DNA of 64,000 bases from a virus (lineage: Duplodnaviria > Heunggongvirae > Uroviricota > Caudoviricetes): positions 1-64,000 of IMG/VR virus record IMGVR_UViG_3300035661_000015; one strand, given 5' to 3'. Under the pieces are notes generated by a model, which was not told the DNA's origin, searched no databases, and saw only the letters and a list, made by a program, of their open reading frames with translations. The position numbers were made by a program, and so were the translations under genes. Below, in pieces: positions 33,297 to 62,982 of the stretch. Numbering within the stretch: the first letter of the stretch is position 1; each line of letters opens with the position of its first letter.

Positions 33297-33373
33297 CTAG
33301 ATGTATACCAACAGCCTTCTAAGCTGTATCAGGTTAAAGGATGAAAATGCAGGTTCGAGTCCTGTCATCTAGG
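33297..33373 (+). tRNA. Atypical tRNA-Arg(TCT)-like: 7-bp acceptor, anticodon arm ACAGC-CTTCTAA-GCTGT, T-arm, but apparently no D-arm and a 21-nt variable region
   Basis: Perfect acceptor CTAGATG/CATCTAG; anticodon loop with T33 and TCT. Confidence 0.5.
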
Positions 33374-44463: not shown

Positions 44464-44535
44464 GGCCCATTCGTATAGTGGCTAAGACGACCGCTTTTCA
44501 GGTGGTAGAAAACGGATCGAAACCGTTATGGGCTA
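44464..44535 (+). tRNA. tRNA-Glu (anticodon TTC)
   Basis: Cloverleaf by eye: acceptor, D-arm, ACCGC-TTTTCAG-GTGGT, T-arm AACGG-ATCGAAA-CCGTT. Confidence 0.65.
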
Positions 44536-44692
44536 TCTTTAGTTATTGTCGCTTACATGGATAGTTTAGGCAATGAATAAAGAACGGTAAATTAAACATG
44601 ATGTTGCTGGACGGGAACATTGTATCTAAAATTTAATTTACTTACCCCGTCCATTAACTTTCTTGTCGGTGGTTCGATTCCCTCACTTATCT

Positions 44693-44767
44693 TCGGGGAG
44701 TGACGGTGTTGGTACTGTCAAAAGCCTTTGAAACTTTTTGACCTTGGTTCGATTCCAAGTCCCCGAA
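44693..44767 (+). tRNA. tRNA-Gln (anticodon TTG)
   Basis: Acceptor TCGGGGA/TCCCCGA; D-arm; loop CTTTGAA; T-arm CTTGG-TTCGATT-CCAAG. Confidence 0.65.
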
Positions 44768-44771
44768 CTTT

Positions 44772-44843
44772 GCCTGAGTAGCTTAATGGTAAAGCACCCG
44801 ATCTGTAATCGGGCAACTCGGAGTTCAAATCTCTGCTTAGGCT
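44772..44843 (+). tRNA. tRNA with anticodon loop TCTGTAA (apparent TGT, Thr; C at position 33)
   Basis: Acceptor GCCTGAG/CTTAGGC; D-arm GCTT/AAGC; CCCGA/TCGGG; T-arm. Confidence 0.55.
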
Positions 44844-44850
44844 CTTTAAT

Positions 44851-44921
44851 GCGTCAGTGATGTAGTGGTTGCATGAGACTCTTCCAAAGTCTATGAAAGA
44901 ATTCGATTTTCTTCTGACGTA
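44851..44921 (+). tRNA. tRNA-Gly (anticodon TCC)
   Basis: Acceptor GCGTCAG/CTGACGT; AGACT-CTTCCAA-AGTCT; T-arm AAGAA-TTCGATT-TTCTT. Confidence 0.65.
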
Positions 44922-45018
44922 CTAGCTGGACCATACCTAGTCTTTTTGTGATGAAAATAATGAAAAGTATCGTCCGTCTGGTGCTTAAAGGAATTTTTAT
45001 TAAAGGGAGCGTAGTTCT

Positions 45019-45698: not shown

Positions 45699-46337
45699 GT
45701 GGGTAAGTATGGGTGTCGGATACAATTATTTAACGACAACCCATATTTGATGGTAGTGATATTATTAGAGAAATCCCAGACCGATATAAAAGACCCCAAA
45801 GTGATCAAGATTAATTCCATCTTTGTCAGTCAAAATCGCCTACGAGATCTAAAACAAGTCGAAAGTATAAGAAGGTTCGCCGCCGCTGGCGAATTTTTTA
45901 ATTTACAATTCATGGGGGCGTGGTGTGAGAAAAATGGCCACAGATCGCCCCAACTAATCCAGATTACATCATTTCCAAACGCCCTTATGATTCACGATGG
46001 CCACCATCGTTGTGCTGGGATTCTTATGTCTTGTCGGGATTATTTGAGAGACGACGAATATAAAATTACGAAGATGACGCCCGAAGACTATTTGGAAATG
46101 GCCCCACAAAAGGGGTGGTTTACGCCCTTTGATCCGTTTTCAGAGGCCCGCACTCCTAATTTCTCCGCTCATAAGTGCGAAGCACTTTCTATTATGGAGA
46201 GAGAGGGCGAACTAGCGGCGATTGATTATATATTAAATAATAAACATAATTATATAGAAAGAAGGAAAATATGGTCGGTTGGTCAGTTGGTTTATGAAAC
46301 ACGATTATCGAACCCAGAACAACGAGGTTTTGTTTAA
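45699..46337 (+). CDS. ParB/Srx-like nuclease-domain protein (DGHHR motif)
   Basis: IHDGHHRCAG. Confidence 0.45.
   Translation: MGKYGCRIQLFNDNPYLMVVILLEKSQTDIKDPKVIKINSIFVSQNRLRDLKQVESIRRFAAAGEFFNLQFMGAWCEKNGHRSPQLIQITSFPNALMIHDGHHRCAGILMSCRDYLRDDEYKITKMTPEDYLEMAPQKGWFTPFDPFSEARTPNFSAHKCEALSIMEREGELAAIDYILNNKHNYIERRKIWSVGQLVYETRLSNPEQRGFV
46146..46171 (-). repeat. Dispersed motif, reverse copy (in CDS)
   Basis: GCCCGCACTCCTAATTTCTCCGCTCA. Confidence 0.7.
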
Positions 46338-46644
46338 CATCTTGTATAAAGGGGTTCAACATACAGTGGTAGTTGACTTAGATGATTTTGACAAAGTATC
46401 TAAATATAAATGGCACTTGAATAAGCATAATAAAAAAGATGGGAGTGAGTTGAGGGTTCAAACAAATCTCCCAAGATCACAGGGAAAGCGTCCTAAGCTT
46501 AGGCTACATATTTTAATTGCGGGTAAGCCAAAGGAAGGAAACGTAGTTGACCACATAGATAGAAATCCACGTAATTGTAAAAAAGAAAATCTTCGTCACG
46601 TGAGCGTGGCGGAAAATAACCGCAATAGAGGCAAAAGAGAATGA
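46279..46644 (+). CDS. HNH homing endonuclease
   Basis: VVDHIDRNPRNCKKENLRHVSVAENN. Confidence 0.65.
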   Translation: MVSWFMKHDYRTQNNEVLFNILYKGVQHTVVVDLDDFDKVSKYKWHLNKHNKKDGSELRVQTNLPRSQGKRPKLRLHILIAGKPKEGNVVDHIDRNPRNCKKENLRHVSVAENNRNRGKRE

Positions 46645-48557
46645 GTATATTTGAAAAACGGGTAGCTTTTAAACCATATGAGTATCCAGATGTTCTAAAA
46701 TTTAGAGACGCTATCAATCATAGTTATTGGATTGTTACAGAATTTAATTTTTCTAGTGATGTACAGGACTTTAAAACTAATTTAACCGAAGTGGAGAGAC
46801 ATGCTATTAGGAACGCCCTTTTAGCTATTTCGCAGATTGAGATTTCCGTAAAAAAGTTTTGGGCAAAGATCGGGGATAAGTTTCCAAAGTCCGAATTTGA
46901 TCAGGTAGGTATAGTTTTTGCGGAATCCGAAGTTAGGCATGCTCAAGCTTATTCTGAGCTATTAGAAATTCTTGGTCTAAATGATGATTTTACCGGATTA
47001 CTTCAAGAGCCATCAATCCAGGGTCGGGTCGAATACTTAACAAAATATTTAAAAAACGCCTCAGATAACTCAAACGAAAACTATACATTGACATTGACTC
47101 TATTTTCTATTTTTATTGAGAATGTGAGTCTTTTTTCGCAATTCCTAATCATCCAATCGTTCAATAAATACAAAAATATATTAAAAGATATAGATAATGT
47201 AGTTCAGGCTACTCAGAAGGAAGAGTGTTATTCAGAAGATACTGATATTTTAACACCTAACGGTTGGGTGCCATTAAAAGATATAAAGAACGGAGATTCG
47301 GTTTATCAGTTTAAAAATGGTAAAATCACAAAAACAACCGCTTCAAATAAAATTGAGAGAGATTATAATGGACGGATGTATGAGATTGGTAATAAGTCAA
47401 GTAATTGCTTAGTAACTCCTGGTCATGAAATGGTTTATATCAACAAGATGGGGGATTATGAAAAGAATACCGCTAAAGATATTAAGTATCATTCAAAAAT
47501 AAAAATTCCTGCCGGTGGTATTTTAGAAAATAATTCTGAAGAAAAGTTGACGTGGAGTGAGCGTCTCCAAATCGCTATGCAATCTGATGCGACTAGATTA
47601 TATTGGATTAACGCCAATGGTGAAAAAATTTGGAGAGGAAAAGATGGTGGTTATAACTATGAGTTCACACTAACAAAACAAAGAAAAAAGGATAGGTTAA
47701 GATTAATTTTAAATAATACAAATATTGAGTTTGTAGAACAAGATATTGGTAAAGAGACGGAATTTAAAATAAAATATAACAATGATAATGATTATAAAAC
47801 ATTTACTTGGGTTGATTTAAGTAATAAAAATAAAGATTGGTGCATAGATTTTGTTCAAGAGTGCGTTGAGTGGGATGGATATAGAGGTGGCAGCAACATG
47901 GGGTTTAGCACTACGAATAAAAAGGTGGCCGATATTTTTCATGCTATTTCTGTACTGGCGGGTTATAGAACAAATCTTTTGACTAATAAAAGTAAAAGAG
48001 GATATAAGGATTGTTATAAAATTAGTATAAGTGAAAGGTCACTTACCCCATCTGGACACAGTTACGATAAAGTCGAACAAGGTTATAGTGGTATGGTTTA
48101 TTGCGTTACCGTTCCATCTGGAATCATTATCACAAGACGCAACGGAAAGGTTTGTGTTGCCGGAAATTGCCTACATGCACTTTTCGGGGTTTATCTGATC
48201 AAAGAAATTCAAAAAGAGTGTCCCGATTGGTTTAATGAGGATTTTTATAATAAGTTATATAGGGCTTGTAAGAAAGCGTATGAGGCAGAGGAAAAGATTA
48301 TAGACTGGATATTTGAAAAGGGTGAACTTGATTTTCTACCGAAAGATATTGTAAAAGAGTTTATTAAGGATAGGTTTAATGAGAGCTTACTTATGGTGGG
48401 CGGAAAAGAAGTTTTTGAAGTTGATACGGAGAAGTTAAGTTCTTTAAGTTGGTTCAACGAAGGTGTTAGTGGCCAGACCAGTACAGATTTTTTCCATAAA
48501 AAACCAGTGACTTATAGCAAAAAAACAAAATCAATCAAAGCGGGAGACTTATTCTAA
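46641..48557 (+). CDS. nrdB: Ribonucleotide reductase small subunit NrdB interrupted by an intein
   Basis: R2 ferritin-like fold motifs; extein junction QKEE|C...N|CLHALF matches RDEGLHCDF. Confidence 0.8.
   Translation: MSIFEKRVAFKPYEYPDVLKFRDAINHSYWIVTEFNFSSDVQDFKTNLTEVERHAIRNALLAISQIEISVKKFWAKIGDKFPKSEFDQVGIVFAESEVRHAQAYSELLEILGLNDDFTGLLQEPSIQGRVEYLTKYLKNASDNSNENYTLTLTLFSIFIENVSLFSQFLIIQSFNKYKNILKDIDNVVQATQKEECYSEDTDILTPNGWVPLKDIKNGDSVYQFKNGKITKTTASNKIERDYNGRMYEIGNKSSNCLVTPGHEMVYINKMGDYEKNTAKDIKYHSKIKIPAGGILENNSEEKLTWSERLQIAMQSDATRLYWINANGEKIWRGKDGGYNYEFTLTKQRKKDRLRLILNNTNIEFVEQDIGKETEFKIKYNNDNDYKTFTWVDLSNKNKDWCIDFVQECVEWDGYRGGSNMGFSTTNKKVADIFHAISVLAGYRTNLLTNKSKRGYKDCYKISISERSLTPSGHSYDKVEQGYSGMVYCVTVPSGIIITRRNGKVCVAGNCLHALFGVYLIKEIQKECPDWFNEDFYNKLYRACKKAYEAEEKIIDWIFEKGELDFLPKDIVKEFIKDRFNESLLMVGGKEVFEVDTEKLSSLSWFNEGVSGQTSTDFFHKKPVTYSKKTKSIKAGDLF
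47226..48167 (+). mobile_element. Intein in NrdB (Cys1 ... Asn, +1 Cys; about 314 aa with endonuclease-like middle)
   Basis: Begins CYSEDTD, ends VCVAGN followed by C; host protein continuity restored when removed. Confidence 0.7.
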
Positions 48558-51304
48558 TGGGTTATAGATGGTTAAATAAGTTATCACAAGATTTTCTTGA
48601 AAAAGACTACTTGCTACCAGGGCAAACGGTTGACGAACGTGTTAATATTATCTGTAATCATGCGGAAAATATTTTAAAATTACCGGGATTTGCAGCTAAA
48701 CTTAAGGCCAATTTTGAAAAAGGTTGGTATTCTTTTAGTACCCCAATCTGGACTAATTTTGGGACCGATAGAGGTTTAGCTATATCTTGTTTTGGTTCGT
48801 ATATAGAAGATACGATGGAGTCGATTGCGGGCACATGGGCCGAAGTCTGTATGATGACTAAACTAGGTGGTGGCACATCGGCTTATTTTGGCGATCTTCG
48901 CCCACGTGGGGCCGAAATTAAAAATAATGGAAAAAGTTCGGGTTCGGTCAATTTTATGGAAGCTTTTGATACCTTGATAAATATCGCTAGTCAAGGCTCC
49001 AGTAGACGTGGTAATTGTGCCGTATATTTGCCGGTTGATCATAAGGATATTGAAGAATTTTTACAGATCAGGCAAGAGGGGCATCCTATCCAAGACTTGT
49101 CTTTCGGCGTCTGTATTCCTGAGGGCTGGATGCAAAGCATGATTGATGGAGATCAATCTAAGCGGAAAATATGGGCCCGTATTTTGGAATGCCGATCTAA
49201 TATGGGCTATCCTTATATTTTCTTTTCGGATAATGTAAGTAATGGTACAGTAGATTGTTATAAAAATACGGATAGAAAAATCACCCACTCTAATTTATGT
49301 TGTGTTACAAAAGATCAGAGAGTTGTTTCGGATCGGGGGCTATTAACAGTTGAGGAATTATATAATATAGGAGGTGAATTAAAATTATTTGACGGGATCA
49401 ATCAGGTGTCGGCTTCGCCGATGTTAAAGATATCTGATTCTGAAGATATTTTTAAGATTACCCTAGATAATGGATTAACACATAAAGTTACTAGCGAGCA
49501 TAGAATTGAAACCAATAAGGGAATGGTAAAATTAAAAGATCTAAAAATTAGAGATAAGGTTGCAATTCAATTAAATACTGGTATTTTTGGTAATAAATCA
49601 ATGGAAGATGAGGCGTTTTTACTTGGAACCTATCAGGCTAATGGTACTCAAAATAAAGATAATATTTATCTTGATCTATGGGAACATAGTTTTGATCTAA
49701 TTGAAGAAATAGAGACTAGGTTTAGTAATGTGTTTTATAAATATAGTTGCGATAAGTATGATATTACAAATCAGTATAACTCAACTTTTCAAAGATCTAT
49801 TGATCCAACTAAATTTTATGATTGTGTCGTAACTGATTCGCCCATAAAGAAAAAGAGACTTGGGTCAAATTGTCTTAAAAAGGCACTAAATTTTGAAAAA
49901 GGATATATTCCTAATTGGATTTGGGAATCGGATGAAAAAACTCAGTGGCAGTATATTAGAGGCCTTTTCTACGCCGATGGCACTATCAGTATGACAAATG
50001 ATAAGGGTAGCCCTATTTACTTAAGCATCAGTAATATTAATAAAGCTTTTCTTGAAGAATTACAAATATTGCTTTTAAATCTCGGGGCAAGGTTTGCATT
50101 ATCTTTAGGTAATCCGGCTGGCGAAAGATCGCTACCAAATGGTAAAGGTGGTTATAGTCTATATAATTGCCAAGATTGCTATAGGCTAGTTTGTGGTAGT
50201 AAAGTTGCCGCATTATTATTTGAGAAGAATATACAATTTTTAACCCGTAAAGGTATAGAATTAGAAAATAGGGTATATAGGGACAATACCAAGAAATTCT
50301 CTAGAATTAAATCTATTGAGCATATTGGACAAGATTCCGTATACTGCTGTGAGGTTTATACCAATGATCACAAATGGGTTTGCAACGGAATAATTACTCA
50401 TAATAGTGAAATACTTTTACCAGATAACGCCGAAGAATCATTTGTATGTGATCTTTCTAGTATGAATATGATTTACTACGATGAATGGAAAGATACTGAC
50501 GCTATTGAACTACTGGTCTATCTTCTAGATGCGGTAATGACAGATTTTATTGAAAAGGCTAAGAAAATTAAATTTATGGAGCGGGCCGTTAGGTTTGCTG
50601 AAAATCATAGGGCTCTTGGGATCGGTTGGTTTGGGTGGCACAGTCTTTTGCAAAGTAAGATGATTGCTTTTGAAAGTATGGAAGCAAAGTATTTAAATAT
50701 TGAAATCGCCAAAAATATGAAAGAAAAAGCCTATGGGGCGTCGGCAAAAATGGCCGAAGAGTACGGTGAGTGTAAGATGACTAAAGGGTATGGACGTAGA
50801 CACGTAACACTTTCCGCAATCGCCCCCACAAAATCCTCTTCTTTTATTATTGAACAAGCCTCCGAAGCAGTCGAGCCCGATACGGCGAATATCACAGTCA
50901 AGGATTTAGCCAAGGGAAAAGTCACTATTAAAAATAAATACTTAATTAAAATATTGGAAACTAAGGGAAAGAATACTGAAAAAGTCTGGTCGTCTATTTT
51001 AAAAATGGGCGGATCTGTTCAACATTTAGATTTTTTAACAAATGAAGAAAAAGCGGTATTCAAAACCTTCGGAGAAATTTCTCCGCGTGAAATTATAATT
51101 CAGGCCGCCCAAAGACAGAAATATATTGATCAGTCTCAATCTATTAATTTAATGATCCATCCATCAGTACCGACTAAAGATGTAAATGCCCTACTTATTG
51201 AAGCTTGGCAAATGGGTGTAAAAACCCTATATTATCAAAAAAGTGTTAACGCCTCTCAAGAATTTGCTAAAAATATTCTGAATTGTTCGTCTTGCGAAGG
51301 TTGA
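48557..51304 (+). CDS. nrdA: Ribonucleotide reductase large subunit NrdA interrupted by an intein at the active-site NLC|SEI
   Basis: ATP-cone/RNR motifs; SNLC then intein then SEILLPDN. Confidence 0.85.
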   Translation: MGYRWLNKLSQDFLEKDYLLPGQTVDERVNIICNHAENILKLPGFAAKLKANFEKGWYSFSTPIWTNFGTDRGLAISCFGSYIEDTMESIAGTWAEVCMMTKLGGGTSAYFGDLRPRGAEIKNNGKSSGSVNFMEAFDTLINIASQGSSRRGNCAVYLPVDHKDIEEFLQIRQEGHPIQDLSFGVCIPEGWMQSMIDGDQSKRKIWARILECRSNMGYPYIFFSDNVSNGTVDCYKNTDRKITHSNLCCVTKDQRVVSDRGLLTVEELYNIGGELKLFDGINQVSASPMLKISDSEDIFKITLDNGLTHKVTSEHRIETNKGMVKLKDLKIRDKVAIQLNTGIFGNKSMEDEAFLLGTYQANGTQNKDNIYLDLWEHSFDLIEEIETRFSNVFYKYSCDKYDITNQYNSTFQRSIDPTKFYDCVVTDSPIKKKRLGSNCLKKALNFEKGYIPNWIWESDEKTQWQYIRGLFYADGTISMTNDKGSPIYLSISNINKAFLEELQILLLNLGARFALSLGNPAGERSLPNGKGGYSLYNCQDCYRLVCGSKVAALLFEKNIQFLTRKGIELENRVYRDNTKKFSRIKSIEHIGQDSVYCCEVYTNDHKWVCNGIITHNSEILLPDNAEESFVCDLSSMNMIYYDEWKDTDAIELLVYLLDAVMTDFIEKAKKIKFMERAVRFAENHRALGIGWFGWHSLLQSKMIAFESMEAKYLNIEIAKNMKEKAYGASAKMAEEYGECKMTKGYGRRHVTLSAIAPTKSSSFIIEQASEAVEPDTANITVKDLAKGKVTIKNKYLIKILETKGKNTEKVWSSILKMGGSVQHLDFLTNEEKAVFKTFGEISPREIIIQAAQRQKYIDQSQSINLMIHPSVPTKDVNALLIEAWQMGVKTLYYQKSVNASQEFAKNILNCSSCEG
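49301..50404 (+). mobile_element. Intein in NrdA (Cys1 ... His-Asn, +1 Ser; 368 aa; LAGLIDADG-like GLFYADGTI)
   Basis: CVTKDQ ... ITHN|S; homing endonuclease motif inside. Confidence 0.8.
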
Positions 51305-51329
51305 CACTAAATATAACTTGTGTTACAAT
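51301..51329 (+). promoter_or_regulatory. Sigma70-like promoter (TTGACA-17-TACAAT)
   Basis: Hexamers. Confidence 0.5.
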
Positions 51330-51411
51330 AGGAGATGCGGTTAATGCCACGTCTCTTTTTTTATAAGGATACATATGCAATTTTTTATATATTGGAAATG
51401 GAGAATGGAAA

Positions 51412-51792
51412 ATGTTTAAATATAAAAATCAATACTACGAACAATCACTTGTTTTAAAAAATAATCCAAAGTCAGAAATCTCTATGGAAGATTTTATTAG
51501 ATCATATTATAAAAATGGTTATCATGATGGTCAACCAAGACTTCGGCAACTCCTACCTAATGGGGAATGGTCCGATAATACATATCAACTCTCTACACTA
51601 GCTAAGACATTTTTATTATACGAAGCAAGGGTTCATATTTTTGACACCAAACAAATACTCGTAGAAACACGTAATTCTTACGATGGTTACATTACAGGAG
51701 TTAAGTATTTTTATTATGAATCTTTGGATGATTTTATTTGCACCATTATGAACTGGACCAATGATTTTACGGAGTTTTATAAAAATGTTTAA
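51412..51792 (+). CDS. Hypothetical protein
   Basis: ORF track. Confidence 0.4.
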   Translation: MFKYKNQYYEQSLVLKNNPKSEISMEDFIRSYYKNGYHDGQPRLRQLLPNGEWSDNTYQLSTLAKTFLLYEARVHIFDTKQILVETRNSYDGYITGVKYFYYESLDDFICTIMNWTNDFTEFYKNV

Positions 51793-52025
51793 TACTATAC
51801 TTGATCTGGTTAACGATTATAAAATTGATAAAGCACTTGATTTTTCTAATAGAGAAGAAAAGTCTTTATTTGGCATGGTTTATTTTTTTTGAAACAGGTC
51901 AAGTTATATTGGAAACAGTGGAGTTTCTTGATCTTAAATACTTTTCCAATATGGGTGAATTTGAAAAGTTTATCATGAATGAGATTAATAGAATTAAAAC
52001 TCTAGAAAAGAATTGAAATTTTAAT

Positions 52026-52640
52026 ATGAACCTAATAGAACAAATGCAAAGTTGCGAATATACGCCCGGCCAATCAGTGTTAGAATATGGACAATCTGTC
52101 TACGAGTATTTTAGACGAATTTTAAATATTTGCCTAACTGGCGTTATTGATCCCGCCATAAAGGTGCCCGACCAAATGTTCTTGTACAGGAAATGGGCCG
52201 CTGACGAAATTGACATTTATATTATGTACTTCTATTTACTTTATCACAATTGTGGAAAATCCTTTTGTAAAAGGGTTGACGAAAATGGAAAGTCCCACTT
52301 CCCCGATCATGCCGCCGTCTCTAAGGCCACCTATGCCCTGTACTTTCCGCTTACACCATTTACCCTTGACATTCAAGAGCTAATTGGTTATGATATGGTT
52401 ATTCACACAGCAAACAGGGAAGAAATTGCCGAGCACTTAAAAGTATGGAAACCAGAAACCGCCATCGCCCTTTGCTTTTCCGCACTCGCCGAAGTACATT
52501 CTAACGCAATGATGTTTGGAGGGCTTGACTCAACTTCATTTAAGATTAAGTACAAGAGGATTGAGAAAAATATTAATTTTATTTTTAAGCACTATAAACC
52601 TAATCCTAATAAGATCAGTGTTAAGCTTAAAGGGGGGTGA
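52026..52640 (+). CDS. Hypothetical protein
   Basis: ORF track. Confidence 0.4.
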   Translation: MNLIEQMQSCEYTPGQSVLEYGQSVYEYFRRILNICLTGVIDPAIKVPDQMFLYRKWAADEIDIYIMYFYLLYHNCGKSFCKRVDENGKSHFPDHAAVSKATYALYFPLTPFTLDIQELIGYDMVIHTANREEIAEHLKVWKPETAIALCFSALAEVHSNAMMFGGLDSTSFKIKYKRIEKNINFIFKHYKPNPNKISVKLKGG

Positions 52641-52702
52641 AGAAATGCCGGGTATGTATTATGCTCAAATTCCACCGAAAGAAGGAAGGATGGTAATCTT
52701 AA

Positions 52703-53245
52703 ATGTTTGAAAGCCACGTAACCGTCGAAGACTTTTCCGAAGAAGGATTTAGGGCGAAGTGCAAGGAAATTGGTGTTAAGCCCGTCGTTATTTACCAGGA
52801 TAGTGGCGGAAGGCCCGTTCAAATGATGACTCAGGAATTTTTTAAAAGCACCGATAGAGACGCGGCGGTTGCCCGCCTCCACGAAATTGCAGATCAGTTT
52901 GGAACAAACTGTAAGCGGAGAAAGTTAGAGGAAATAGTAGGGGGCCGGGCTAAATCGTTGCCGCCCCACGACTATCTTGAATTTCACCTAAAATATTCCC
53001 CAGTCGCCCCCTTAACTTTCTCCGCTCATGTGTTACAATTAGGGGGTAAAACATCGATGAATGCCAATGGTAACTGTTATGCTACGGCGAATGATAGGGC
53101 GACTTACGAGAAATTAAAAAGCGGCCTTATCGGGCATAATTTTATTTCAGAGGCTTTTGAGTGTATTGTTTTTGATAGTAATCCGTCATATGATTTTGTT
53201 CACCATTGTGATTGTGGTCTCAAGGTTGTACCTATATACGAATAG
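52703..53245 (+). CDS. Hypothetical protein hosting an in-frame forward/reverse motif pair (52912-53028)
   Basis: ORF track. Confidence 0.4.
   Translation: MFESHVTVEDFSEEGFRAKCKEIGVKPVVIYQDSGGRPVQMMTQEFFKSTDRDAAVARLHEIADQFGTNCKRRKLEEIVGGRAKSLPPHDYLEFHLKYSPVAPLTFSAHVLQLGGKTSMNANGNCYATANDRATYEKLKSGLIGHNFISEAFECIVFDSNPSYDFVHHCDCGLKVVPIYE
52912..52950 (+). repeat. Dispersed motif, forward copy with an 11-nt insertion before the GC box (in CDS)
   Basis: TAAGCGGAGAAAGTTAGAGGAAATAGTAGGGGGCCGGGC. Confidence 0.75.
53005..53028 (-). repeat. Dispersed motif, reverse copy (same CDS, about 90 bp downstream)
   Basis: CGCCCCCTTAACTTTCTCCGCTCA. Confidence 0.8.
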
Positions 53246-53689
53246 GCACATATGTTGGACTACGGGCACATATAATAATAAACTTTTTTTAAATGAAGTG
53301 GTTGAAGAAAAATAAGGGAGAGTAAAATGATCGTAGAAATTTTCCCGACTTACATACCTAATGATCCAGCTTTTCTTTATCTTCTTAATCATATTAACGA
53401 ATTAACCGATTCGGGATATCTTTTAGAAGCACTTAATGCAACGGTCGACTTAGCTTTTCAAATTGGTAGGGAGTATGAGTTAAGTATTTCTGAGTATATT
53501 AAGATGCAAAATGATAAACTTACCCAAAAAGGGGATGAGGACGATGTTGGTGCGGGTGGCTTGGGCTATTTTAATATTAAAGCCCATAATGAGAGCATCT
53601 AATCACTTTGTAAAAATACATGGATTTGAAAACATATTTCATCTTAAGTATTTTTATAAATGGTTAAAAGAAGAGGGGTAGAGTAAAGT

Positions 53690-54253
53690 ATGGACATTTT
53701 GAACCACAAGACTTTGGTCCTAAATCAGTGCGGTACTCCCATAAAGTGCTTGCATTGGTCTAGGGCCATTAGTCTTGTTTATGTGAGAAATAAGGCAACT
53801 GTTTTAAATTATTATGATATTAAACTTAGGGCGGGTCACGGTAAAAATTATCCCTTACCTGCTGTTATTATTCTCAAGAAGTATGTTCGTCAAAACTATC
53901 TTCATGTTGGAATATCTAAGCGGAAAATATATGTGAGGGACAAATATGAGTGCCAGTATTGCGGCGAACGGCTAAAACAAGACGGTCTGACCATTGATCA
54001 TATTATTCCAAAATCCTTCTTTAAAAAGGGGCCGCAGGTGGCGGTCGATGGAAAGCAGTTGGTCAATTCGGGCTCTTGGCGTAATTTAATCACGTCATGT
54101 AAGCCATGTAATACGAAAAAGGGCAATCGGACCCCCGAGCAGGCGGGCATGAACCTCTTGACTTTGCCCCGTATTCCTGATAGAATAGAGATCAAGTTGG
54201 GACTCTTAAGTGAAAGTTTTCCAGATGAATGGAGAAATTACATTGCAGTTTAA
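53690..54253 (+). CDS. HNH endonuclease
   Basis: CQYCGERL...DHIIPKS...CKPCNTKKGN. Confidence 0.65.
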   Translation: MDILNHKTLVLNQCGTPIKCLHWSRAISLVYVRNKATVLNYYDIKLRAGHGKNYPLPAVIILKKYVRQNYLHVGISKRKIYVRDKYECQYCGERLKQDGLTIDHIIPKSFFKKGPQVAVDGKQLVNSGSWRNLITSCKPCNTKKGNRTPEQAGMNLLTLPRIPDRIEIKLGLLSESFPDEWRNYIAV

Positions 54254-54523: not shown

Positions 54524-55657
54524 GTGTTAAATCCAAATAATTCCATCATTGATTCTGGATATAAATTTGTTCTCTCAATTACGGGGGGTGGTCAAGAGAT
54601 TATTGGCGAACTTACAAAATATGGGGGTATGTCATCATGTCTTCTAGAATGTAATGTGCCGTATTCTCAACCCGCCCTTGAAAAACTTATCGGTCACCTA
54701 CCAACTAAAACTGTAAGTAAAGAGACCGCACTTAAATTAGCTATGGTGAGCTATCTTAGAGCAAAAGAGTATACGGGCGAAAATAAAAATATTTATGGAA
54801 TTGGCGTGACCTCCTCTTTGGTAAAGCTGGACGGTGAACGAGGTGGGCGTGAACATAAGGTCTGTATTGGTTTACATGGTACAAATACTTATTACCTTGA
54901 AATTATTTTAAAGCAGAATCGAACGAGATTAGAAGAAGAAGAGTTGGTTTCAAATATCATTGGGGCGATTTTAGAATATGCTGGTTATGAGTTCGATATA
55001 TTTGTGAATTGTTCTAGAAGTCAAATTAATGGACTTTTATCTACCTTAGACTTTTTTAATATTGAACTTGGGTTTTTTAAGTCTGAATATAATAATGCCT
55101 ACATATTTTTAAAAGATGGTCTAGCTGCTAGTCAGTGTGAAACTCCGCTTAATCCAACACTCTTTCCTGTTTCTATGAATCCACTTCATAGTGGGCACAT
55201 TACTATAAAAGAGTTTTATGAAAAAAAATACGATAAAACTGTTTATTATGAACTATGTCTAAAAAACGCCGACAAAGGACAGCTTGATTTTATTTCAACC
55301 CAAGAAAGAATTAAACAGGTTAATGAATTGTTTATTACAAACTTACCTTTGTTTATTGATAAATTTAACAAATTTCCTTATTCGTCTTTTTTAATGGGGG
55401 TCGATACCTTTCATCGTATCCTTAATCCTAAATACTATAACTTAGAGACTATTAGAGATGTAATTAAAAAATACAACCATCACTTTGATCGTAGATCGTC
55501 TCTACATATTTTTAATAGAGTTGGTTACGAGGGAACTTATAATTATCTTAAGGGCTACCTTGAAGCCCTAGATCTTGATTGTTCTGGTATCATTTTTGAA
55601 GATGATTTTATTCCAACAGACATTTCTTCTACTAAAATCAGAAAAGGGCAGCTATGA
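54524..55657 (+). CDS. Bifunctional CinA/PncC-like domain plus NMN adenylyltransferase (HxGH, ISSTKIR)
   Basis: N-terminal SITGGG...ECNVPYS (CinA C-terminal-domain-like); C-terminal NPLHSGH and ISSTKIR. Confidence 0.7.
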   Translation: MLNPNNSIIDSGYKFVLSITGGGQEIIGELTKYGGMSSCLLECNVPYSQPALEKLIGHLPTKTVSKETALKLAMVSYLRAKEYTGENKNIYGIGVTSSLVKLDGERGGREHKVCIGLHGTNTYYLEIILKQNRTRLEEEELVSNIIGAILEYAGYEFDIFVNCSRSQINGLLSTLDFFNIELGFFKSEYNNAYIFLKDGLAASQCETPLNPTLFPVSMNPLHSGHITIKEFYEKKYDKTVYYELCLKNADKGQLDFISTQERIKQVNELFITNLPLFIDKFNKFPYSSFLMGVDTFHRILNPKYYNLETIRDVIKKYNHHFDRRSSLHIFNRVGYEGTYNYLKGYLEALDLDCSGIIFEDDFIPTDISSTKIRKGQL

Positions 55658-57240
55658 ACCTCAACACTTTTTTAAGTGGCCCACGAAAGATCCCCGTACC
55701 ACTACGCGGCGACTTTTATACCGTCACAAGTGCCCCCGTTATTTCCAAATCAGCTAAGCGGAGAAGTGTGTATAATTTTACTAATCGTGTTAGTCCAATG
55801 ACCGGCCTTCCACAGGGCGTTGCGGGCGACTCACGTATGGTTCTTTTTGGACTGACCGATTTTATCCAGCGGGAATTGATTTGCCCAATTAATTATAGTG
55901 ATATATCCGACACGGCGGATTTCTTAAAAGATGCCCACTCTTTTGGCGACCCAGTCCCCTTTGATAAACAAATGTGGATTCGTGTGTTAGATAAGTACAA
56001 TGGTTTTTTGCCAATTGAGATTAAGGCCCTTCCGGAATGCTCTACTTTTTGGCCCAATGAGCCCATAATTGAAGTCCAATCTTTGGACGAGGGGTTTGGG
56101 GAAATCGCCGCAATTATAGAGGCCAACTTAGTTGGCATGGTTTCTTGTGCAACGGCCCGCCTAACCTTAAGTCGCCACCTATTTAAGAGAATGCAACAGC
56201 AAGTTAAAAAGTACAACCCCTCCTATTCCTCCGCTCAAGTTGATAGCATAGCATCCTTTATGGTTCACGATTTTGGAATGAGGGCATCATCTACGCCGGA
56301 AGAAGCTGAAATTTATGGTGTAGCTCACCTTTTAGCCGGATTTAATGGTACGGATACGACAAGTGCAGCATATTTAGTACGAAAGAATGGTGCCCCTAGT
56401 CCTATCGGCACGAGTATTTTGGCCCTAGCCCATCGTATTGTACAGAGTCACGACGAAGAACAAAGTTCTTTTGAGGCTCTTTTTAATGCAAGTCAAGGTA
56501 CGATTGGGAGTTATGTGGGCGATTGTTATAATTTTAATAATGCGGTCGATAAATTCCTTGTAGAGATTGCCCTAAGAACTAAGACAATTGTAGTTGCTCG
56601 TCCTGATAGTGGCGATTATATTAAAAATATGCTCTATGTGGTTGACACGGCTATCAAGCACGACCTTTTTACCATTTCGCGAGATGGATTAAAAGAAGCT
56701 ACTAATCTACGTTATATTTTGGGCGACTCAATGACTTGGGCTAAAATGTGGGAAAGTTTTCAAGTCCTAGAACGCCGTGGTGTAAATCCAACAGGTTTTG
56801 GTATTTTTGGGGTTGGGGGCTGGATGCGTAATAGCGTTAATCGCGATAGCCTTTCTTCCGCTTATAAATTGGCCGAACATGGTTCATATCCAGATTTTAA
56901 GAAGGTAGTAAAACTTTCCGAGATTGCCGCTAAAATGTCGATTCCCGGCCAAACAAAGATTTTGCGGGGCAACTTGGTTGGAAAATCCCCCACAGTTGTT
57001 GCAATTGAAGAACCGGGAGAGGACCAGAGAGTTGTTTATTATAGGGGCGATATGGGTGAAAAGAGTTTCTTGGCTCCATGTCTAGAAGATTTTAATACGA
57101 AGCGGCAACGGTGTATTGAAGAGTTTGATAGCTATACTCATGTAAACTGTGATTATGGGACCAGAAACTTTTTGCCAACATCAAAGGCTATTCGAGATTT
57201 TCAACAAGAGGCAATTAATAAATACAGGGGTAACAAGTGA
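55654..57240 (+). CDS. nadV: Nicotinamide phosphoribosyltransferase (NAMPT/NadV)
   Basis: HDFGMRASSTPEEAEIYGVAHLLAGFNGTDT matches the NAMPT core. Confidence 0.75.
   Translation: MNLNTFLSGPRKIPVPLRGDFYTVTSAPVISKSAKRRSVYNFTNRVSPMTGLPQGVAGDSRMVLFGLTDFIQRELICPINYSDISDTADFLKDAHSFGDPVPFDKQMWIRVLDKYNGFLPIEIKALPECSTFWPNEPIIEVQSLDEGFGEIAAIIEANLVGMVSCATARLTLSRHLFKRMQQQVKKYNPSYSSAQVDSIASFMVHDFGMRASSTPEEAEIYGVAHLLAGFNGTDTTSAAYLVRKNGAPSPIGTSILALAHRIVQSHDEEQSSFEALFNASQGTIGSYVGDCYNFNNAVDKFLVEIALRTKTIVVARPDSGDYIKNMLYVVDTAIKHDLFTISRDGLKEATNLRYILGDSMTWAKMWESFQVLERRGVNPTGFGIFGVGGWMRNSVNRDSLSSAYKLAEHGSYPDFKKVVKLSEIAAKMSIPGQTKILRGNLVGKSPTVVAIEEPGEDQRVVYYRGDMGEKSFLAPCLEDFNTKRQRCIEEFDSYTHVNCDYGTRNFLPTSKAIRDFQQEAINKYRGNK
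55755..55773 (+). repeat. Dispersed motif, degenerate forward copy (in the NAMPT CDS)
   Basis: CTAAGCGGAGAAGTGTGTAT. Confidence 0.5.
56214..56236 (-). repeat. Dispersed motif, degenerate reverse copy (in the NAMPT CDS)
   Basis: CAACCCCTCCTATTCCTCCGCTCA. Confidence 0.45.
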
Positions 57241-57782
57241 TTACTATTGAATATATAAATGGCGATCTTTTTAATGATGATAATGATGTAATCGCACATG
57301 GTTGTAACTGTTCGGGCGGATTTGGTTCGGGTGTTGCGGGTATTATCTCTAGAGAATTCCCAGAGGCGAGAGCTAATTATATTAAAAAACATATGGTGGG
57401 TGAATTAAGTCTAGGTCAAATTTTCTTTGTAGAGACCGATAGTGTTCATCCTGAATATATTGTTAATATGATGACTCAGCAAAATTATGGCGGGGACAAA
57501 ACTGTCGTTTATGTTAGCTATGAAGCTATTCGTGAATGCTTTAGGGGCCTATTTAAAAGTATTGATTTCTTTTTTTCTCACCGCTATGAGACCGCGTACA
57601 GTGAACCTGACGGAGAATATATGTATGCGACTAGCAAACCTATTACTATTGCTATTCCTAAAATTGGTTCGGGCCTAGCTAATGGTGACTGGGTAGAGAT
57701 TCATGAAATTATAAAAGAGGTAGTAGAAGAGTTATCTGATTTCTGTTCTTTGAACATGGTCTTGAAAATTTACTCACTATAA
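57237..57782 (+). CDS. Macro-domain protein (ADP-ribose binding/processing)
   Basis: DVIAHGCNCSGGFGSGVAGII. Confidence 0.7.
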   Translation: MITIEYINGDLFNDDNDVIAHGCNCSGGFGSGVAGIISREFPEARANYIKKHMVGELSLGQIFFVETDSVHPEYIVNMMTQQNYGGDKTVVYVSYEAIRECFRGLFKSIDFFFSHRYETAYSEPDGEYMYATSKPITIAIPKIGSGLANGDWVEIHEIIKEVVEELSDFCSLNMVLKIYSL

Positions 57783-57808
57783 GCGGAGAAAGTAAATGTA
57801 TGGGGCGA
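57780..57808 (+). repeat. Dispersed motif, forward copy supplying SD+ATG of phoH
   Basis: TAAGCGGAGAAAGTAAATGTATGGGGCG. Confidence 0.8.
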
Positions 57809-58627
57809 AGTAACAGACGGGGGTCTAAAAACCCACAACGTAAAGAGCGTTACGAAGAACAACAAAATAAAAATAATGGCGGGGTATCTAATATGCGTGG
57901 AAAGCCAAGGCACTTATCACAACCAACCGAGTCGCGGCCCATTGAAATTAAAAAGGTGCCGCGTTTTACCAGCATTGATGGGGCGACCGAAAACCAGAAG
58001 AAGGTGATTAGGGCGATTCACACTAATGATATTATTTTTATTGAGGGTCCAGCCGGAACAGGTAAAACCACATTAGCTATTGGGGTTTCGGTTGAAAGAC
58101 TCGCAAAAGGTTTGACACAGCGTATTATTTTATGTAGACCGGCCCTTGAAGCTAATGGCGAACGTATTGGTTTCGAGCCTGGAACGGGTACTGATAAGCT
58201 AGGCCCCTATACAACGCCCTTCTTTCAAGCTTTAAATAAATTTGTCGATGGTGAAACATTGACAACGTGGCAGAAAGAGGGTAAGATTAGTATTGTTCCG
58301 TTCTCGTATATGCGTGGACAGAATCTTGATGGCGATATTATTTTGGACGAAGGTCAAAATTGTAAGTTTGAACAATTATATTTATTTTTGACTCGTATGT
58401 GTAAAGATAGTAAGGTTATGATTACTTATGACTTGCTTCAGTCCGACCTTCCCTATTATGAAGATATTACGGTTGGGGAAGTTTGTAGAGAACTATCTAA
58501 GGAAGATGGGATTGTTCACTGTCAGTTAGATGATACGGATAATCAGCGTCACCCCCAGGTGAGAAAAATTATTAAAGCATTTGGACGACTAAGAGAAAGA
58601 CGCAAAAATGATTCTAAGAGACTATAA
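57800..58627 (+). CDS. phoH: PhoH-family ATPase
   Basis: GPAGTGKTTLAI ... ILDEGQN. Confidence 0.8.
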   Translation: MGRSNRRGSKNPQRKERYEEQQNKNNGGVSNMRGKPRHLSQPTESRPIEIKKVPRFTSIDGATENQKKVIRAIHTNDIIFIEGPAGTGKTTLAIGVSVERLAKGLTQRIILCRPALEANGERIGFEPGTGTDKLGPYTTPFFQALNKFVDGETLTTWQKEGKISIVPFSYMRGQNLDGDIILDEGQNCKFEQLYLFLTRMCKDSKVMITYDLLQSDLPYYEDITVGEVCRELSKEDGIVHCQLDDTDNQRHPQVRKIIKAFGRLRERRKNDSKRL

Positions 58628-60437: not shown

Positions 60438-60905
60438 ATGAGTGAAAAAAGAAGTGCTAAGTCATGCTATCAATCAAATTTTGGGGGCGGTTTTATCACT
60501 GGCCCCCAACTTGTTGCTGAGAAGGTTTTTGCCCTTAGGGCTTTCGCTGAGAAAAAACAATTAAAAGATCGATTTTGGCAAGATGACTTATATAAAAAGG
60601 ATTTTATTTTTCAGTGTAAGTTGGCAAATGATCTATTAAGTGGAAAAGGTAAAGGGGGCGGTCCCTATGAAATTTCCACAATTCTCAACGTACTTAATGG
60701 CGAATCCGTCAAATTCAAAAAGATTAAAAGTCTTGGGGCGTTATATGCACTAGGGCCACTACTAAGGGCCGAACAAGCACGCCAAGATAAAGAGGCGGCG
60801 ACACTTGAGGTCGCTACCCCCATTATTGAACCCGAAATTATATTGGAGACTCGGCCCCAAATAAATAAGAAAATATCACTTTTAGATAAATTAAAGGGAC
60901 TGTAA
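60438..60905 (+). CDS. Hypothetical protein
   Basis: ORF track. Confidence 0.4.
   Translation: MSEKRSAKSCYQSNFGGGFITGPQLVAEKVFALRAFAEKKQLKDRFWQDDLYKKDFIFQCKLANDLLSGKGKGGGPYEISTILNVLNGESVKFKKIKSLGALYALGPLLRAEQARQDKEAATLEVATPIIEPEIILETRPQINKKISLLDKLKGL
60636..60661 (+). repeat. Dispersed motif, degenerate forward copy
   Basis: TTAAGTGGAAAAGGTAAAGGGGGCGG. Confidence 0.45.
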
Positions 60906-61975
60906 TGGCTAGACCTAAAAAAGCAGATAAGGTCGAGGAAGTCGTAGAAAACAAAATTAAGAAATCATGTTTTGATTTAGTGAGAGCACAGGTTGAAAAA
61001 AGTTTTGGTAAGAATATTTTAAAAAGTGGCGACGCTGTATTGGATGAAAAAACTATTATTATTCCACTCTCACCCGCCCTCGATATCGGATTAGGTGGCG
61101 GAATCCCGGAAGGTACTTGGGGAATTTTTACAGGCCCTCCAAAACTCGGCAAGACGACCACCATGTTGTCTTTCGCGGCTAACGCCCAAAAACCTGAATT
61201 TGGTGGTAGAAATGTATACTACTTCAAAGTTGAAGGTCGTCTATCTAAAAAGAATTTAGAAATTGCTGGCCTCGATATGTCTAAGCTACAAATTATTGAA
61301 AGTACGGAAGAAAAGATTTTAACAGCCGAAGATATTTTGCAGATTGCGGAAATTGCAATCATGACAGATCCCGGTTGTGTTATTATCATTGATAGCTATA
61401 GCTCTCTATGCACAAACTCCGAAATGTCGAATGAAATCAAATCAAATTCAAGGTCAGACGCCCCTAAGCTTTTATATAATTTTACACGAAAAATGGGACA
61501 GGTTGTTCCACTTAAAAAATGTATTGTTATTGGCGTAATGAAAATTATTGCGAATACTTCGGGGTACGGTGCTTCGGAAATGGAGCAAGGGGGAGGGGCA
61601 CTTAAGTTTCAAGAAGATTGGAAAATTCGTTGTATTAGAAAAGAACTTTGTCATCTTAATGACGATAAAACCCAAACCGCTACAGGGCAGATTGTTACTT
61701 GGAGAATTCTAAATTCAGTACTTGGAGCACCTGGGGCTGAAGTAACTTCTCATATTAAATATGGGATTGGCGTAGATAGTGTGAGAGAAATTTGCGATAT
61801 TGCAATTGATATGAATATCATAGTTAAGGGCGGATCGTGGTTTAATATTTTGCCGGAAGAGAATGAAGATAAATTAAAATTTCAGGGAATGGCTGACCTT
61901 ATGGAATATATCGAATCTAATCCAGATGTTTTTGAACAAATTAATACTAGGGTAAGGAATATGTTATATGCCTAA
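60905..61975 (+). CDS. RecA-family recombinase (UvsX/RecA-like)
   Basis: Walker A GPPKLGKTT in RecA-like context; overall layout. Confidence 0.7.
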   Translation: MARPKKADKVEEVVENKIKKSCFDLVRAQVEKSFGKNILKSGDAVLDEKTIIIPLSPALDIGLGGGIPEGTWGIFTGPPKLGKTTTMLSFAANAQKPEFGGRNVYYFKVEGRLSKKNLEIAGLDMSKLQIIESTEEKILTAEDILQIAEIAIMTDPGCVIIIDSYSSLCTNSEMSNEIKSNSRSDAPKLLYNFTRKMGQVVPLKKCIVIGVMKIIANTSGYGASEMEQGGGALKFQEDWKIRCIRKELCHLNDDKTQTATGQIVTWRILNSVLGAPGAEVTSHIKYGIGVDSVREICDIAIDMNIIVKGGSWFNILPEENEDKLKFQGMADLMEYIESNPDVFEQINTRVRNMLYA

Positions 61976-62268
61976 ACAACTTGGTGACCTACTTTTAGTA
62001 TATGAAACCGATTATCGAGAGGTTGATGATTTTATCTCAGATTATTTTGGTAAAAATTACGAGATGCAAGATTTTGGTGAATATTCTAATGGTGACAACG
62101 AATTGTTTAACTTAAAGAAAGGTGATGACTACGATTGTACCAAAAATGTTATGGATTGGTTATTAGGAAATAGAAAATCGGTTTGGTTACGAGATATTAT
62201 GCAATATCTTGTTAATCATGATGTTATTTTGTCCGGCAATTACATTATTAATATAAGTTGGTAAATAT

Positions 62269-62982
62269 ATGCACTATCTCGGCGGTAAATCGCAAATAGC
62301 TAAAGAACTTTGTTCTTATATAAAAACACGATTAGTACCAGGACAACCTTATAATGAACCATTTGTTGGAGCTTGCTGGACAATGCAAGAAATTTCTGGC
62401 CCCAACGAAAGGGTTTGTAATGGTAGCGATATTCATGGTGACCTCATAGCTCTACTAAAAGCACTTCAGGATGGATGGATTCCGCCAGATATTGTTAGTG
62501 AACAAGAGTACCGTAACGTCATGCTTAATTATAGAAAAAATAAGAATGATTATTCGGCGATACGTGGTTTTATGGGGTTCGGATGTTCTTTTGCGGGAAG
62601 ATTTTTTGAGGGGTATGCTAGATGTAAGAATAGTAGAAACTATGCACTTTCCGCTAAAAGATCTTTGTTGAAAAAATTACCGAATATACAAAATGTAAAT
62701 TTCTCTCAAAAAGATTATAAAGAATATATTCATAATACTGGTGATTTATTTTATTGTGATCCGCCATACGAAGGAACAAAAAACTTTAGTCATAAATTCA
62801 ATCATAAAGATTTTTGGGATTGGGTTAGAGTGATGTCAAAAAATAATACGGTCTTAGTTTCCGAATATAATGCTCCCGAAGATTTTAAAATTGTTTGGCA
62901 AAAAGAAGTAAAGACAAAGATGGCAGATATAAATAATAATAAAATACAAAGAGTTGAAAAACTTTGGGAATTAATTAAATGA
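62269..62982 (+). CDS. dam: DNA adenine methyltransferase (Dam-like; DPPY)
   Basis: N-terminal YLGGKSQIA and DPPY motifs. Confidence 0.75.
   Translation: MHYLGGKSQIAKELCSYIKTRLVPGQPYNEPFVGACWTMQEISGPNERVCNGSDIHGDLIALLKALQDGWIPPDIVSEQEYRNVMLNYRKNKNDYSAIRGFMGFGCSFAGRFFEGYARCKNSRNYALSAKRSLLKKLPNIQNVNFSQKDYKEYIHNTGDLFYCDPPYEGTKNFSHKFNHKDFWDWVRVMSKNNTVLVSEYNAPEDFKIVWQKEVKTKMADINNNKIQRVEKLWELIK

Follow-up and report, generated by a model that had tools for sequence, protein, structure and literature searches.

How does a phage keep a ribonucleotide reductase (RNR) whose two subunit genes are both interrupted inside the motifs that carry catalysis? This question is raised by a 64,000-nucleotide stretch of tailed-phage DNA (Caudoviricetes; positions 1 to 64,000 of the IMG/VR record IMGVR_UViG_3300035661_000015), which is referred to here as the window. 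A first-pass annotation, made from the letters of the DNA alone, had placed inteins in both RNR genes, nrdA and nrdB, and had described two free-standing HNH endonuclease genes as flanking them. Both RNR genes and both HNH reading frames are found where that annotation put them, as four co-oriented reading frames on the plus strand (Table 1). Very probably, the locus is an nrdB-nrdA operon for a class Id-type RNR in a large uncultivated phage, with both genes invaded in frame by class 1 inteins containing nested LAGLIDADG endonucleases. All of these kinds of element are known already, since inteins occupy the radical cysteine or the R2 metal ligands in other RNRs and free-standing HNH genes occur at other nrd loci, and the finding does not overturn current understanding. 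It does supply an example, seen in two further assemblies, where both subunits of a phage RNR would need repair by protein splicing, one at the radical cysteine and the other at a metal ligand.

The locus is not an assembly artefact, because two independent public assemblies carry the same DNA. A Logan contig from SRR11723145 (71.6 kb) is 100% identical to the window across the 14.7 kb that was retrieved. A contig from JGI 3300036715 is 99.96% identical, with 1 mismatch in 2768 nucleotides, and it covers the NLCC junction in nrdA. The first HNH gene (HNH1), nrdB, and nrdA form a tightly coupled trio with overlapping stop and start codons, consisting of ATGA between HNH1 and nrdB and TAATG between nrdB and nrdA. 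Both nrd reading frames are open throughout their 638 and 915 codons.

Table 1. Positions of the nrd genes, their inteins and exteins, the free-standing HNH genes, and the upstream transfer RNA (tRNA) cluster in the window (aa, amino acids).
Feature	Position	Strand	Size and remarks
Four-tRNA cluster (Glu-TTC, Gln-TTG, Thr-TGT, Gly-TCC)	44464-44922		directly upstream of the HAD/RNR block
HNH1, free-standing HNH_3 endonuclease gene	46294-46644	+	116 aa; mechanical reading frame from TTG 46279, 121 aa
nrdB precursor, class Id-type RNR beta with intein	46641-48557	+	638 aa
NrdB N-extein	46641-47225	+	aa 1-195, ending VVQATQKEE
NrdB intein	47226-48167	+	aa 196-509, 314 aa
NrdB C-extein	48168-48557	+	aa 510-638, from Cys+1 (CLHALF)
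nrdA precursor, class Id-type RNR alpha with intein	48557-51304	+	915 aa
NrdA N-extein	48557-49300	+	aa 1-248, ending KITHSNLC
NrdA intein	49301-50404	+	aa 249-616, 368 aa
NrdA C-extein	50405-51304	+	aa 617-915, from Ser+1 (SEILLP)
HNH2, second free-standing HNH gene	53690-54253	+	187 aa; CxxC...DH...N...CxxC zinc-finger type

The exteins of both genes encode recognizable RNR subunits. The nrdB product matches Pfam Ribonuc_red_sm (E 1.4e-45) in two stretches, and the nrdA product scores 697 bits against the NCBIfam model TIGR02510 ("NrdE-prime"), for which the cut-off is 602. When the inteins are removed in silico, residues 2-324 of the 324-aa NrdB align to 6SF4/5OLK, the beta subunit of Leeuwenhoekiella blandensis (E 4e-114), and the protein also aligns to 6CWO and the 8DQ3 series. 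Residues 3-547 of the 547-aa NrdA align to 6DQX (E 4e-202) and also to 6DQW. Both alignments are free of gaps at the junction, and in NrdA the sequence hsnlcseillp lies opposite asnlcteimlp. The best matches in PDB (6DQX/6DQW for alpha, 6SF4/5OLK/6CWO for beta) are entries that we take to be class Id, or Mn(IV)/Mn(III), enzymes. The spliced alpha subunit would be about 550 aa long and lacks an ATP cone. Judged by these matches, the enzyme is predicted to be a class Id-type, Mn-dependent, ATP-cone-less RNR resembling NrdAi/NrdBi.

The catalytic residues are all kept, comprising the thiyl Cys in N-x-C-x-E, the redox Cys pair, the YY dyad, and a C-terminal CxxC in alpha, and the E, ExxH, E, and ExxH ligands in beta. 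In alpha these are ISCFG, SNLC-SEI, FVCDL, LYYQ, and the C-terminal CSSCEG, and the C-extein contains FVCDLSSMN, LYYQ, and the CSSCEG tail. In beta the ligands and other residues are SQIE, ESEVRH, FIEN, KEE-CLH, and the C-terminal Tyr. The last residue of the NrdA N-extein is the thiyl-radical cysteine. The last Glu of the NrdB N-extein belongs to the second Glu-x-x-His (ExxH) metal-ligand motif, and the His of that motif lies in the CLH that opens the C-extein. The first-pass annotation had staked its reading on junctions that restore conserved RNR motifs, and removal of the inteins regenerates ...HSNLCSEILLP... in NrdA and ...QKEECLHALF..., with the second E-x-x-H, in NrdB. Intein-less alleles in related phages read SNLCSEIFLP in NrdA and, in one locus (L001, described below), QKEELVHALF in NrdB at the exact junction points. 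The proposed interruption of both genes stands, because the motifs are present and intein-less alleles read through at the same points.

The NrdA intein has exactly the length and boundaries first proposed, and it splits the gene within the catalytic motif (HSNLC/CVTKDQ...IITHN/SEILLP, where a slash marks each junction). It matches the Pfam Intein_splicing model (E 2.8e-12; 47.1 bits against a cut-off of 35.8) as well as LAGLIDADG_3 (E 1.2e-10). The residues used in splicing are kept, namely Cys1, T64-x-x-H67, His367-Asn368, and Ser+1. Block B reads VTSEH (aa 63-67), with a Thr and a His that all 78 complete homologous inteins share; this set was used here both for residue conservation and for a survey of junctions. 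With these residues in place and a contiguous RNR alpha restored by its removal, the intein belongs to class 1. The first LAGLIDADG motif is AFLLGTYQANGT (aa 105-116), which has Asn114 at the position of a catalytic Asp. The GLFYADGT block noted at first pass is located at aa 218-228, where the second motif, YIRGLFYADGT, is canonical and includes Asp226. Many metagenomic NrdA inteins are 45-59% identical to this one, and the family comprises 2024 cluster representatives at E<=1e-3.

The NrdB intein likewise lies exactly between QKEE and CLHALF, as annotated (QKEE/CYSEDT...VAGN/CLHALF). It has Cys1, the block B residues T64-P-G-H67 (VTPGH), Asn314, and Cys+1. Block F is VYCVTVPSG and the C-terminus is Gly-Asn. 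The annotation had suggested that intein hidden Markov models (HMMs) be used to check both elements. The NrdA intein is recovered above the cut-off, but the NrdB intein scores 23.6 bits with Pfam (cut-off 35.8) and 19 with TIGR01445 (cut-off 24.5). A comparison of folds was therefore needed for the NrdB intein. An AlphaFold model, built with its few homologues, has a predicted local distance difference test (pLDDT) score of 82 and a predicted template-modelling (pTM) score of 0.82. Foldseek matches this model in PDB to the TliVMA intein (5e-13), PI-PfuI (1e-11), and PI-SceI, and the central domain resembles I-DmoI. Searches of PDB with the intein sequences gave marginal matches only. Two LAGLIDADG-like helices, RLQIAMQSDAT (aa 113-123) and FVQECVEWDGY (aa 209-219), keep both catalytic acids, D120 and D217, which are on model helices 110-121 and 203-217. 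The residues present, a HINT fold matched by the model, and the restoration of NrdB upon removal all indicate a class 1 intein. Other hosts of its family include PhoH, RtcB, portal, and prohead-protease genes.

Related inteins (about 30% identity) are also found in two metagenomic NrdB proteins (P0036 and P0037), in which they occupy the first ExxH motif (ESE/CRH). One of the two is a 156-aa mini-intein. The ferritin-like fold has two paralogous metal-ligand motifs, and one intein family is thus found in both.

Position 4 of block F (VYC) is Cys in both inteins of the window, alongside a normal Cys1. In the NrdB intein (window 48093-48122) this Cys is invariant across the family, whereas many inteins have Asp. 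In the NrdA intein (window 50336-50362) it is shared by 66 of the 78 homologues. Class 3 inteins use a block F Cys as their branch nucleophile. By our own reading of the sequences, not a tool result, the other class 3 signature residues appear to be absent from both inteins.

The two inteins resemble characterized elements in different ways. The NrdA intein is like those of other RNR catalytic subunits (InBase RIR1; NrdA/NrdJ, PMC2677866) in its host protein, the N-L/P-C-x-E motif (in which L/P means Leu or Pro), and the combination of HINT and LAGLIDADG domains. It differs from the RIR1 type because it sits one codon further on, whereas its nearest relatives are inserted before the Cys, and because it has Asn for Asp in motif 1. 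The closest counterpart of the NrdB intein is that of the Aquifex aeolicus R2 protein, a 346-aa LAGLIDADG intein between Leu229 and Cys230, inside E228-x-x-H231, which splices without a penultimate His (Rehling et al., PMC8772380). According to the same study, the R2 inteins of phages are concentrated at the metal-ligand motifs (PMC8772380). The two share a beta-subunit host, the second ExxH motif, Cys+1, the lack of a penultimate His, a LAGLIDADG domain, and a similar size. In contrast, Aquifex has E-L/C-H where the window has E/C-L-H, one residue N-terminal, and the Aquifex host is a di-iron R2 of the NrdAh/NrdBh subclass, whereas the host in the window would be a phage class Id Mn enzyme. 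A profile search for sequence kinship found no Aquifex protein among the 17 detectable relatives of the NrdB intein.

Splicing, endonuclease activity, and homing at this locus are inferred, as distinct from the reading frames, boundaries, domain and fold assignments, motif restoration, and kinship with other RNR inteins, which are shown. Each intein would be excised by an N-S acyl shift at Cys1, trans-esterification to the Ser or Cys at +1, cyclization of the terminal Asn, and an acyl shift that leaves a peptide bond. Splicing would regenerate the catalytic motifs, so the phage would keep a working RNR while the elements persist. Imprecise deletion of an intein would be lethal to the enzyme, given insertion at indispensable residues. 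During co-infection, the endonuclease domains may copy the inteins into intein-less alleles.

The distribution of the inteins among related phages is sporadic. The closest sequenced relative in the phage collection is an uncultured huge phage (LR756511.1, 595 kb; L001), which shares the nrdB-nrdA order, has exteins 62-74% identical to those of the window, and carries a homologous NrdA intein (44% identity) at the catalytic Cys. However, its nrdB is intein-less, no HNH gene lies ahead of nrdB, and the shared intein is one codon upstream (HSNL/C...SN/CTEIML). Another 25 related loci (L002-L026) were found in IMG/VR by using NrdA. Within this set the NrdA intein occurs in 8 loci and is missing in 17, and an NrdB intein is present only in L017. 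Intein-plus and intein-minus alleles therefore coexist among the relatives, and the exteins of the window are 44-61% identical to intein-less IMG/VR alleles. The window carries inteins in both subunits at once, whereas none of the 26 related loci (L001-L026) does. Identities of inteins and exteins are also decoupled. In P0043-P0045 the intein is 54-57% identical and the exteins only 21-35%, and in the opposite case, P0017, the C-extein is 71% and the intein 55% identical. Such decoupling is the expected signature of horizontal spread. A megablast search with positions 40000-64000 of the window found no close phage relatives, and distant blastn similarity is confined to the RNR exteins. No paralogues of either intein or of either HNH gene are found elsewhere in the window.

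The nrdA gene of LR756511.1 has a second intein (L001:5200-6290; RGLPIS/CVAGETW...ILHN/CFGSYIED), located directly 5' of a conserved active-site cysteine. At that site nrdA in the window is uninterrupted (AISCFGSY).

The position of the NrdA intein places it at the second of two known sites. The commonest insertion site of RNR inteins lies directly before the thiyl cysteine (PMC2677866). The NrdJ split inteins are inserted one residue C-terminal of that site, at a position that was new at the time (Dassa et al. 2009, PMC2677866). In the window the junction is NLC/SEI, with Cys at -1 and Ser at +1, which is exactly the junction of NrdJ-1 and NrdJ-2, after the Cys and with Ser or Thr at +1 (PMC2677866). 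Unlike those split inteins, this one is contiguous and its host is a class Id NrdA. In the junction survey, the first site (NL/C or NP/C, with Cys+1) is used by 31 class I and 14 class II inteins, and the second (NLC/S or NLC/T) by 30 class I inteins and 1 class II intein. A smaller initial sample held 33 cluster-level homologues with visible junctions, all of them NL/C except P0028, and NL/C is also the junction in all 9 intein-containing phage or IMG/VR loci. The notion that NLC/SEI is a unique junction was rejected once an exhaustive search of representatives gave the 30 class I cases of NLC/(S or T)EI. With the offset described by Dassa et al. as a precedent (PMC2677866), the idea of a unique slide is accordingly reduced to that of an independent switch within a known pair of sites.

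In a neighbor-joining tree the inteins of the two sites are largely separate, and the NrdA intein of the window falls among those of the first site. All 200 bootstrap resamplings placed a first-site intein as its nearest neighbor, and none joined it to the main second-site clade. At least three further inteins are mismatched in this way (P0047, P0062, and the class II intein P0113). Because the large bipartitions reach only 35-42% support, neither an exact topology nor a number of switches is claimed. The junction DNA is TTA TGT/TGT GTT on the N side and CAT AAT/AGT GAA on the C side. Compared with the nearest relatives, one Cys codon has been gained at the N-junction and one lost at the C-junction. 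This offset might have arisen by illegitimate homing into a diverged target, followed by selection for a +1 nucleophile and a restored N-L-C-x-E. Alternatively, TGT might have been duplicated and then deleted in two steps.

A comparable offset is seen in NrdB. The intein of the window is inserted at E/C-L-H within the second ExxH motif. The L017 intein, which is 37% identical, lies at E-N/C-H, the Aquifex position and one codon away, and P0035 has an intein at the same position as the window. Perhaps intein insertion points are not fixed alleles and slide repeatedly by one codon within a catalytic motif, an idea that we hold tentatively and at less than even odds. If it is correct, homing often lacks codon-level precision when targets have diverged, and the sole filter on survivors is the need for a +1 nucleophile together with restoration of the active site. 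One-codon offsets of this kind would bear on shifts of homing sites and on the birth of new insertion sites.

Several observations weigh against two actively spliced, mobile inteins and a homing gene at this locus. The first catalytic Asp of the LAGLIDADG domain is present in 70 of the 78 homologues of the NrdA intein, which itself has Asn. In characterized LAGLIDADG enzymes, an active site in which this Asp is changed to Asn no longer cleaves DNA. With one of two catalytic acids replaced in this way, the endonuclease of the NrdA intein is probably crippled or a nickase, and this copy is probably immobile or able only to nick. Also, the nearest relatives of the NrdA intein all use Cys+1, so efficient splicing with Ser+1 is not guaranteed. 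The NrdB intein lacks the penultimate His, with Gly there in every member of its family. In addition, this family is small (17 members detectable by profile search), and the intein falls below the curated cut-offs of both intein HMMs. Finally, neither HNH gene yielded a target site or a presence/absence polymorphism. The 25 related nrdBA loci contain no homologue of either gene, and for HNH1 none is seen in any of L001-L026, but synteny around nrdB is too poorly conserved among these loci for an empty site to be defined.

Of the two free-standing genes, HNH1 alone is physically joined to the operon. Pfam HNH_3 recognizes its product at E 3e-8 (33.5 bits; cut-off 24.8), PHROG HNH families do so down to 8e-10, and the motif VDHIDRNPRNCKKENLRHVSVAENNRN is intact, with DH...N...N present. 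ATG 46294 is likelier to be the start than TTG 46279, and it is also called in the independent Logan assembly as the start of a 116-aa HNH_3 gene. The second gene, HNH2, matches Pfam HNH (3.8e-12), HNH_5 (3e-12), and phrog_16726 (2.7e-26), and in NCBIfam it is most similar to HNH domains of the IscB/Cas9 type. It is 2.4 kb downstream of nrdA and beside genes for salvage of nicotinamide adenine dinucleotide (NAD). The annotated flanking of the locus by HNH genes thus holds on one side only, where HNH1 overlaps nrdB. HNH2 is not part of the locus, because five reading frames separate it from nrdA, and it appears to be a separate, unlinked accessory nuclease. With catalytic motifs intact, both genes are nonetheless candidate homing endonucleases.

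A reading frame of 212 codons (45699-46337), located upstream of HNH1 and overlapping it, has no Pfam or PHROG match. By our own reading, its IHDGHHRCAG stretch resembles the DGHHR motif of ParB and sulfiredoxin.

Endonuclease genes are well known at phage nrd loci. In phage T4, mobE lies between nrdA and nrdB and I-TevIII is found in an nrdB intron, and in phage Aeh1 mobE splits nrdA (PMC2790892, PMC3045599). Like these, HNH1 is a small, co-oriented HNH-family gene at an nrd border, but it belongs to the HNH_3 family and is upstream of nrdB, not between the subunits. An alternative for both HNH genes is that they serve as accessory nucleases in packaging, host DNA degradation, or anti-defence, and that their proximity to nrd is incidental. 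No close relatives of HNH1 were detected in IMG/VR, and the protein ends 6 residues past its HNH motif with no C-terminal DNA-binding module. HNH2, for its part, is distant from nrdA and similar to IscB/Cas9-type domains, and its relatives (32-35% identity) neighbor helicase genes or terminase/portal-like genes of small phages. These facts make the accessory role a serious, though less likely, alternative. Varied gene context, as seen for the relatives of HNH2, is typical of mobile genes. Moreover, HNH and GIY-YIG homing genes that abut nrdA or nrdB recur in phages (mobE, I-TevIII; PMC2790892, PMC3653736), and two of the related loci, L016 and L023, have a GIY-YIG-like reading frame between nrdB and nrdA. 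Because endonuclease genes at nrd are classical and these two loci supply a GIY-YIG/NUMOD-like example, a homing role is plausible for HNH1. Most probably it adds a third endonuclease of the homing type, here free-standing, like those that often target nrd genes in phages.

The reading frame in these two loci (L016:158-886 and L023:5272-6000) has 238 codons. Its product has a GIY-YIG-like N-terminus, YFYIIQHIASGKYYAGC, and NUMOD-like repeats, GKKHSEETRLKMK, both assigned by eye.

The inteins themselves might have been co-opted as regulators or maturation aids, such that redox- or metal-dependent splicing times RNR activation or an intein holds the NrdB metal site open for Mn loading. In Aquifex, R2 made with the intein, which lies in the same ExxH motif, had higher metal occupancy and twice the activity of R2 from an intein-less construct (PMC8772380). 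Also, the vicinal Cys-1 and Cys1 at the NrdA junction and the block F Cys of both inteins could form redox-sensitive disulfides. However, among the 26 related loci the NrdA intein is missing from 17 and the NrdB intein from 25. Because most relatives of the operon are intein-less, the inteins are not required, and their sporadic distribution and the decoupling of intein and extein identities fit selfish spread. Co-option is therefore improbable, although the Aquifex precedent makes intein-assisted metal loading in a Mn-dependent class Id enzyme a testable idea.

RNR is often dispensable for phages, and intein-riddled nrdA genes of Campylobacter phages have been described as degenerating (PMC3653736). 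It is nevertheless highly improbable that the nrd genes of the window are decaying pseudogenes in a phage that uses host RNR, with inteins that are dead or that splice from the first Cys of the "CC" pair to NL-SEI without the radical cysteine, because the unusual Ser+1 is matched by 30 class I inteins that share NLC/(S or T)EI, the Asp-to-Asn change hits the endonuclease and not splicing, the missing penultimate His of the NrdB intein is also dispensed with in Aquifex (PMC8772380), and both reading frames are open, with catalytic and splicing residues intact and exteins 62-74% identical to those of LR756511.1 and 44-61% to intein-less alleles. Active RNR genes that carry selfish, splicing inteins remain the preferred reading. 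If they splice as predicted, the two inteins are possible tools, since the Cys-1/Ser+1 junction of the first is near that of the fast NrdJ-1 intein and the second represents a rare family that lacks the penultimate His.

At about 37.6% GC, the window has the look of a segment from a large phage genome. Among its products are RtcB, PhoH, a RecA-like protein, a Dam methylase, NUDIX and macro domains, a NAMPT-like and NMNAT-like pair, and a glycosyltransferase. Downstream of the nrd operon, positions 54524-58627 carry genes for cytidylyltransferase/NMNAT-like, NAMPT-like, macro-domain, and PhoH proteins, followed at 60905-62982 by those for the RecA-like protein and the Dam-type methylase. This auxiliary-metabolism block fits a large lytic phage with NAD salvage. 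An Rfam search of the locus for group I introns or other RNA elements found only tRNAs, and a scan for promoters and terminators gave counts no different from those expected after shuffling. Elsewhere in the window, a tRNA-Tyr with an odd ATA anticodon (26221-26302) is called by ARAGORN only, and a tRNA at 33297-33373 by Rfam only.

The first 3 kb of the window is rich in GC. A chimeric assembly or host junction was considered for this region and rejected, because the region corresponds to four tandem paralogous reading frames (100-849, 849-1514, 1514-2320, and 2320-2802) with Ala-rich repeats. The Logan contig SRR11723145_179113 stops at about position 2787, the end of the repeat array, and the join at 1-2800 is present in one assembly only. 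This contig end is probably an assembly break at the repeats and is not proof of a chimera. A weak Imm5_like match, on the shortest copy only, gives a hint of the family. The four products share an N-terminal domain of about 115 aa (MSKFRSFDL...) and end in Ala-rich repeats (AAxAAxA..., for example, AADAAYAARAARAAAHAAHAARAAAH) that range from about 20 to about 125 aa in length. These repeats produce patches of 66-81% GC within the otherwise AT-rich genome.

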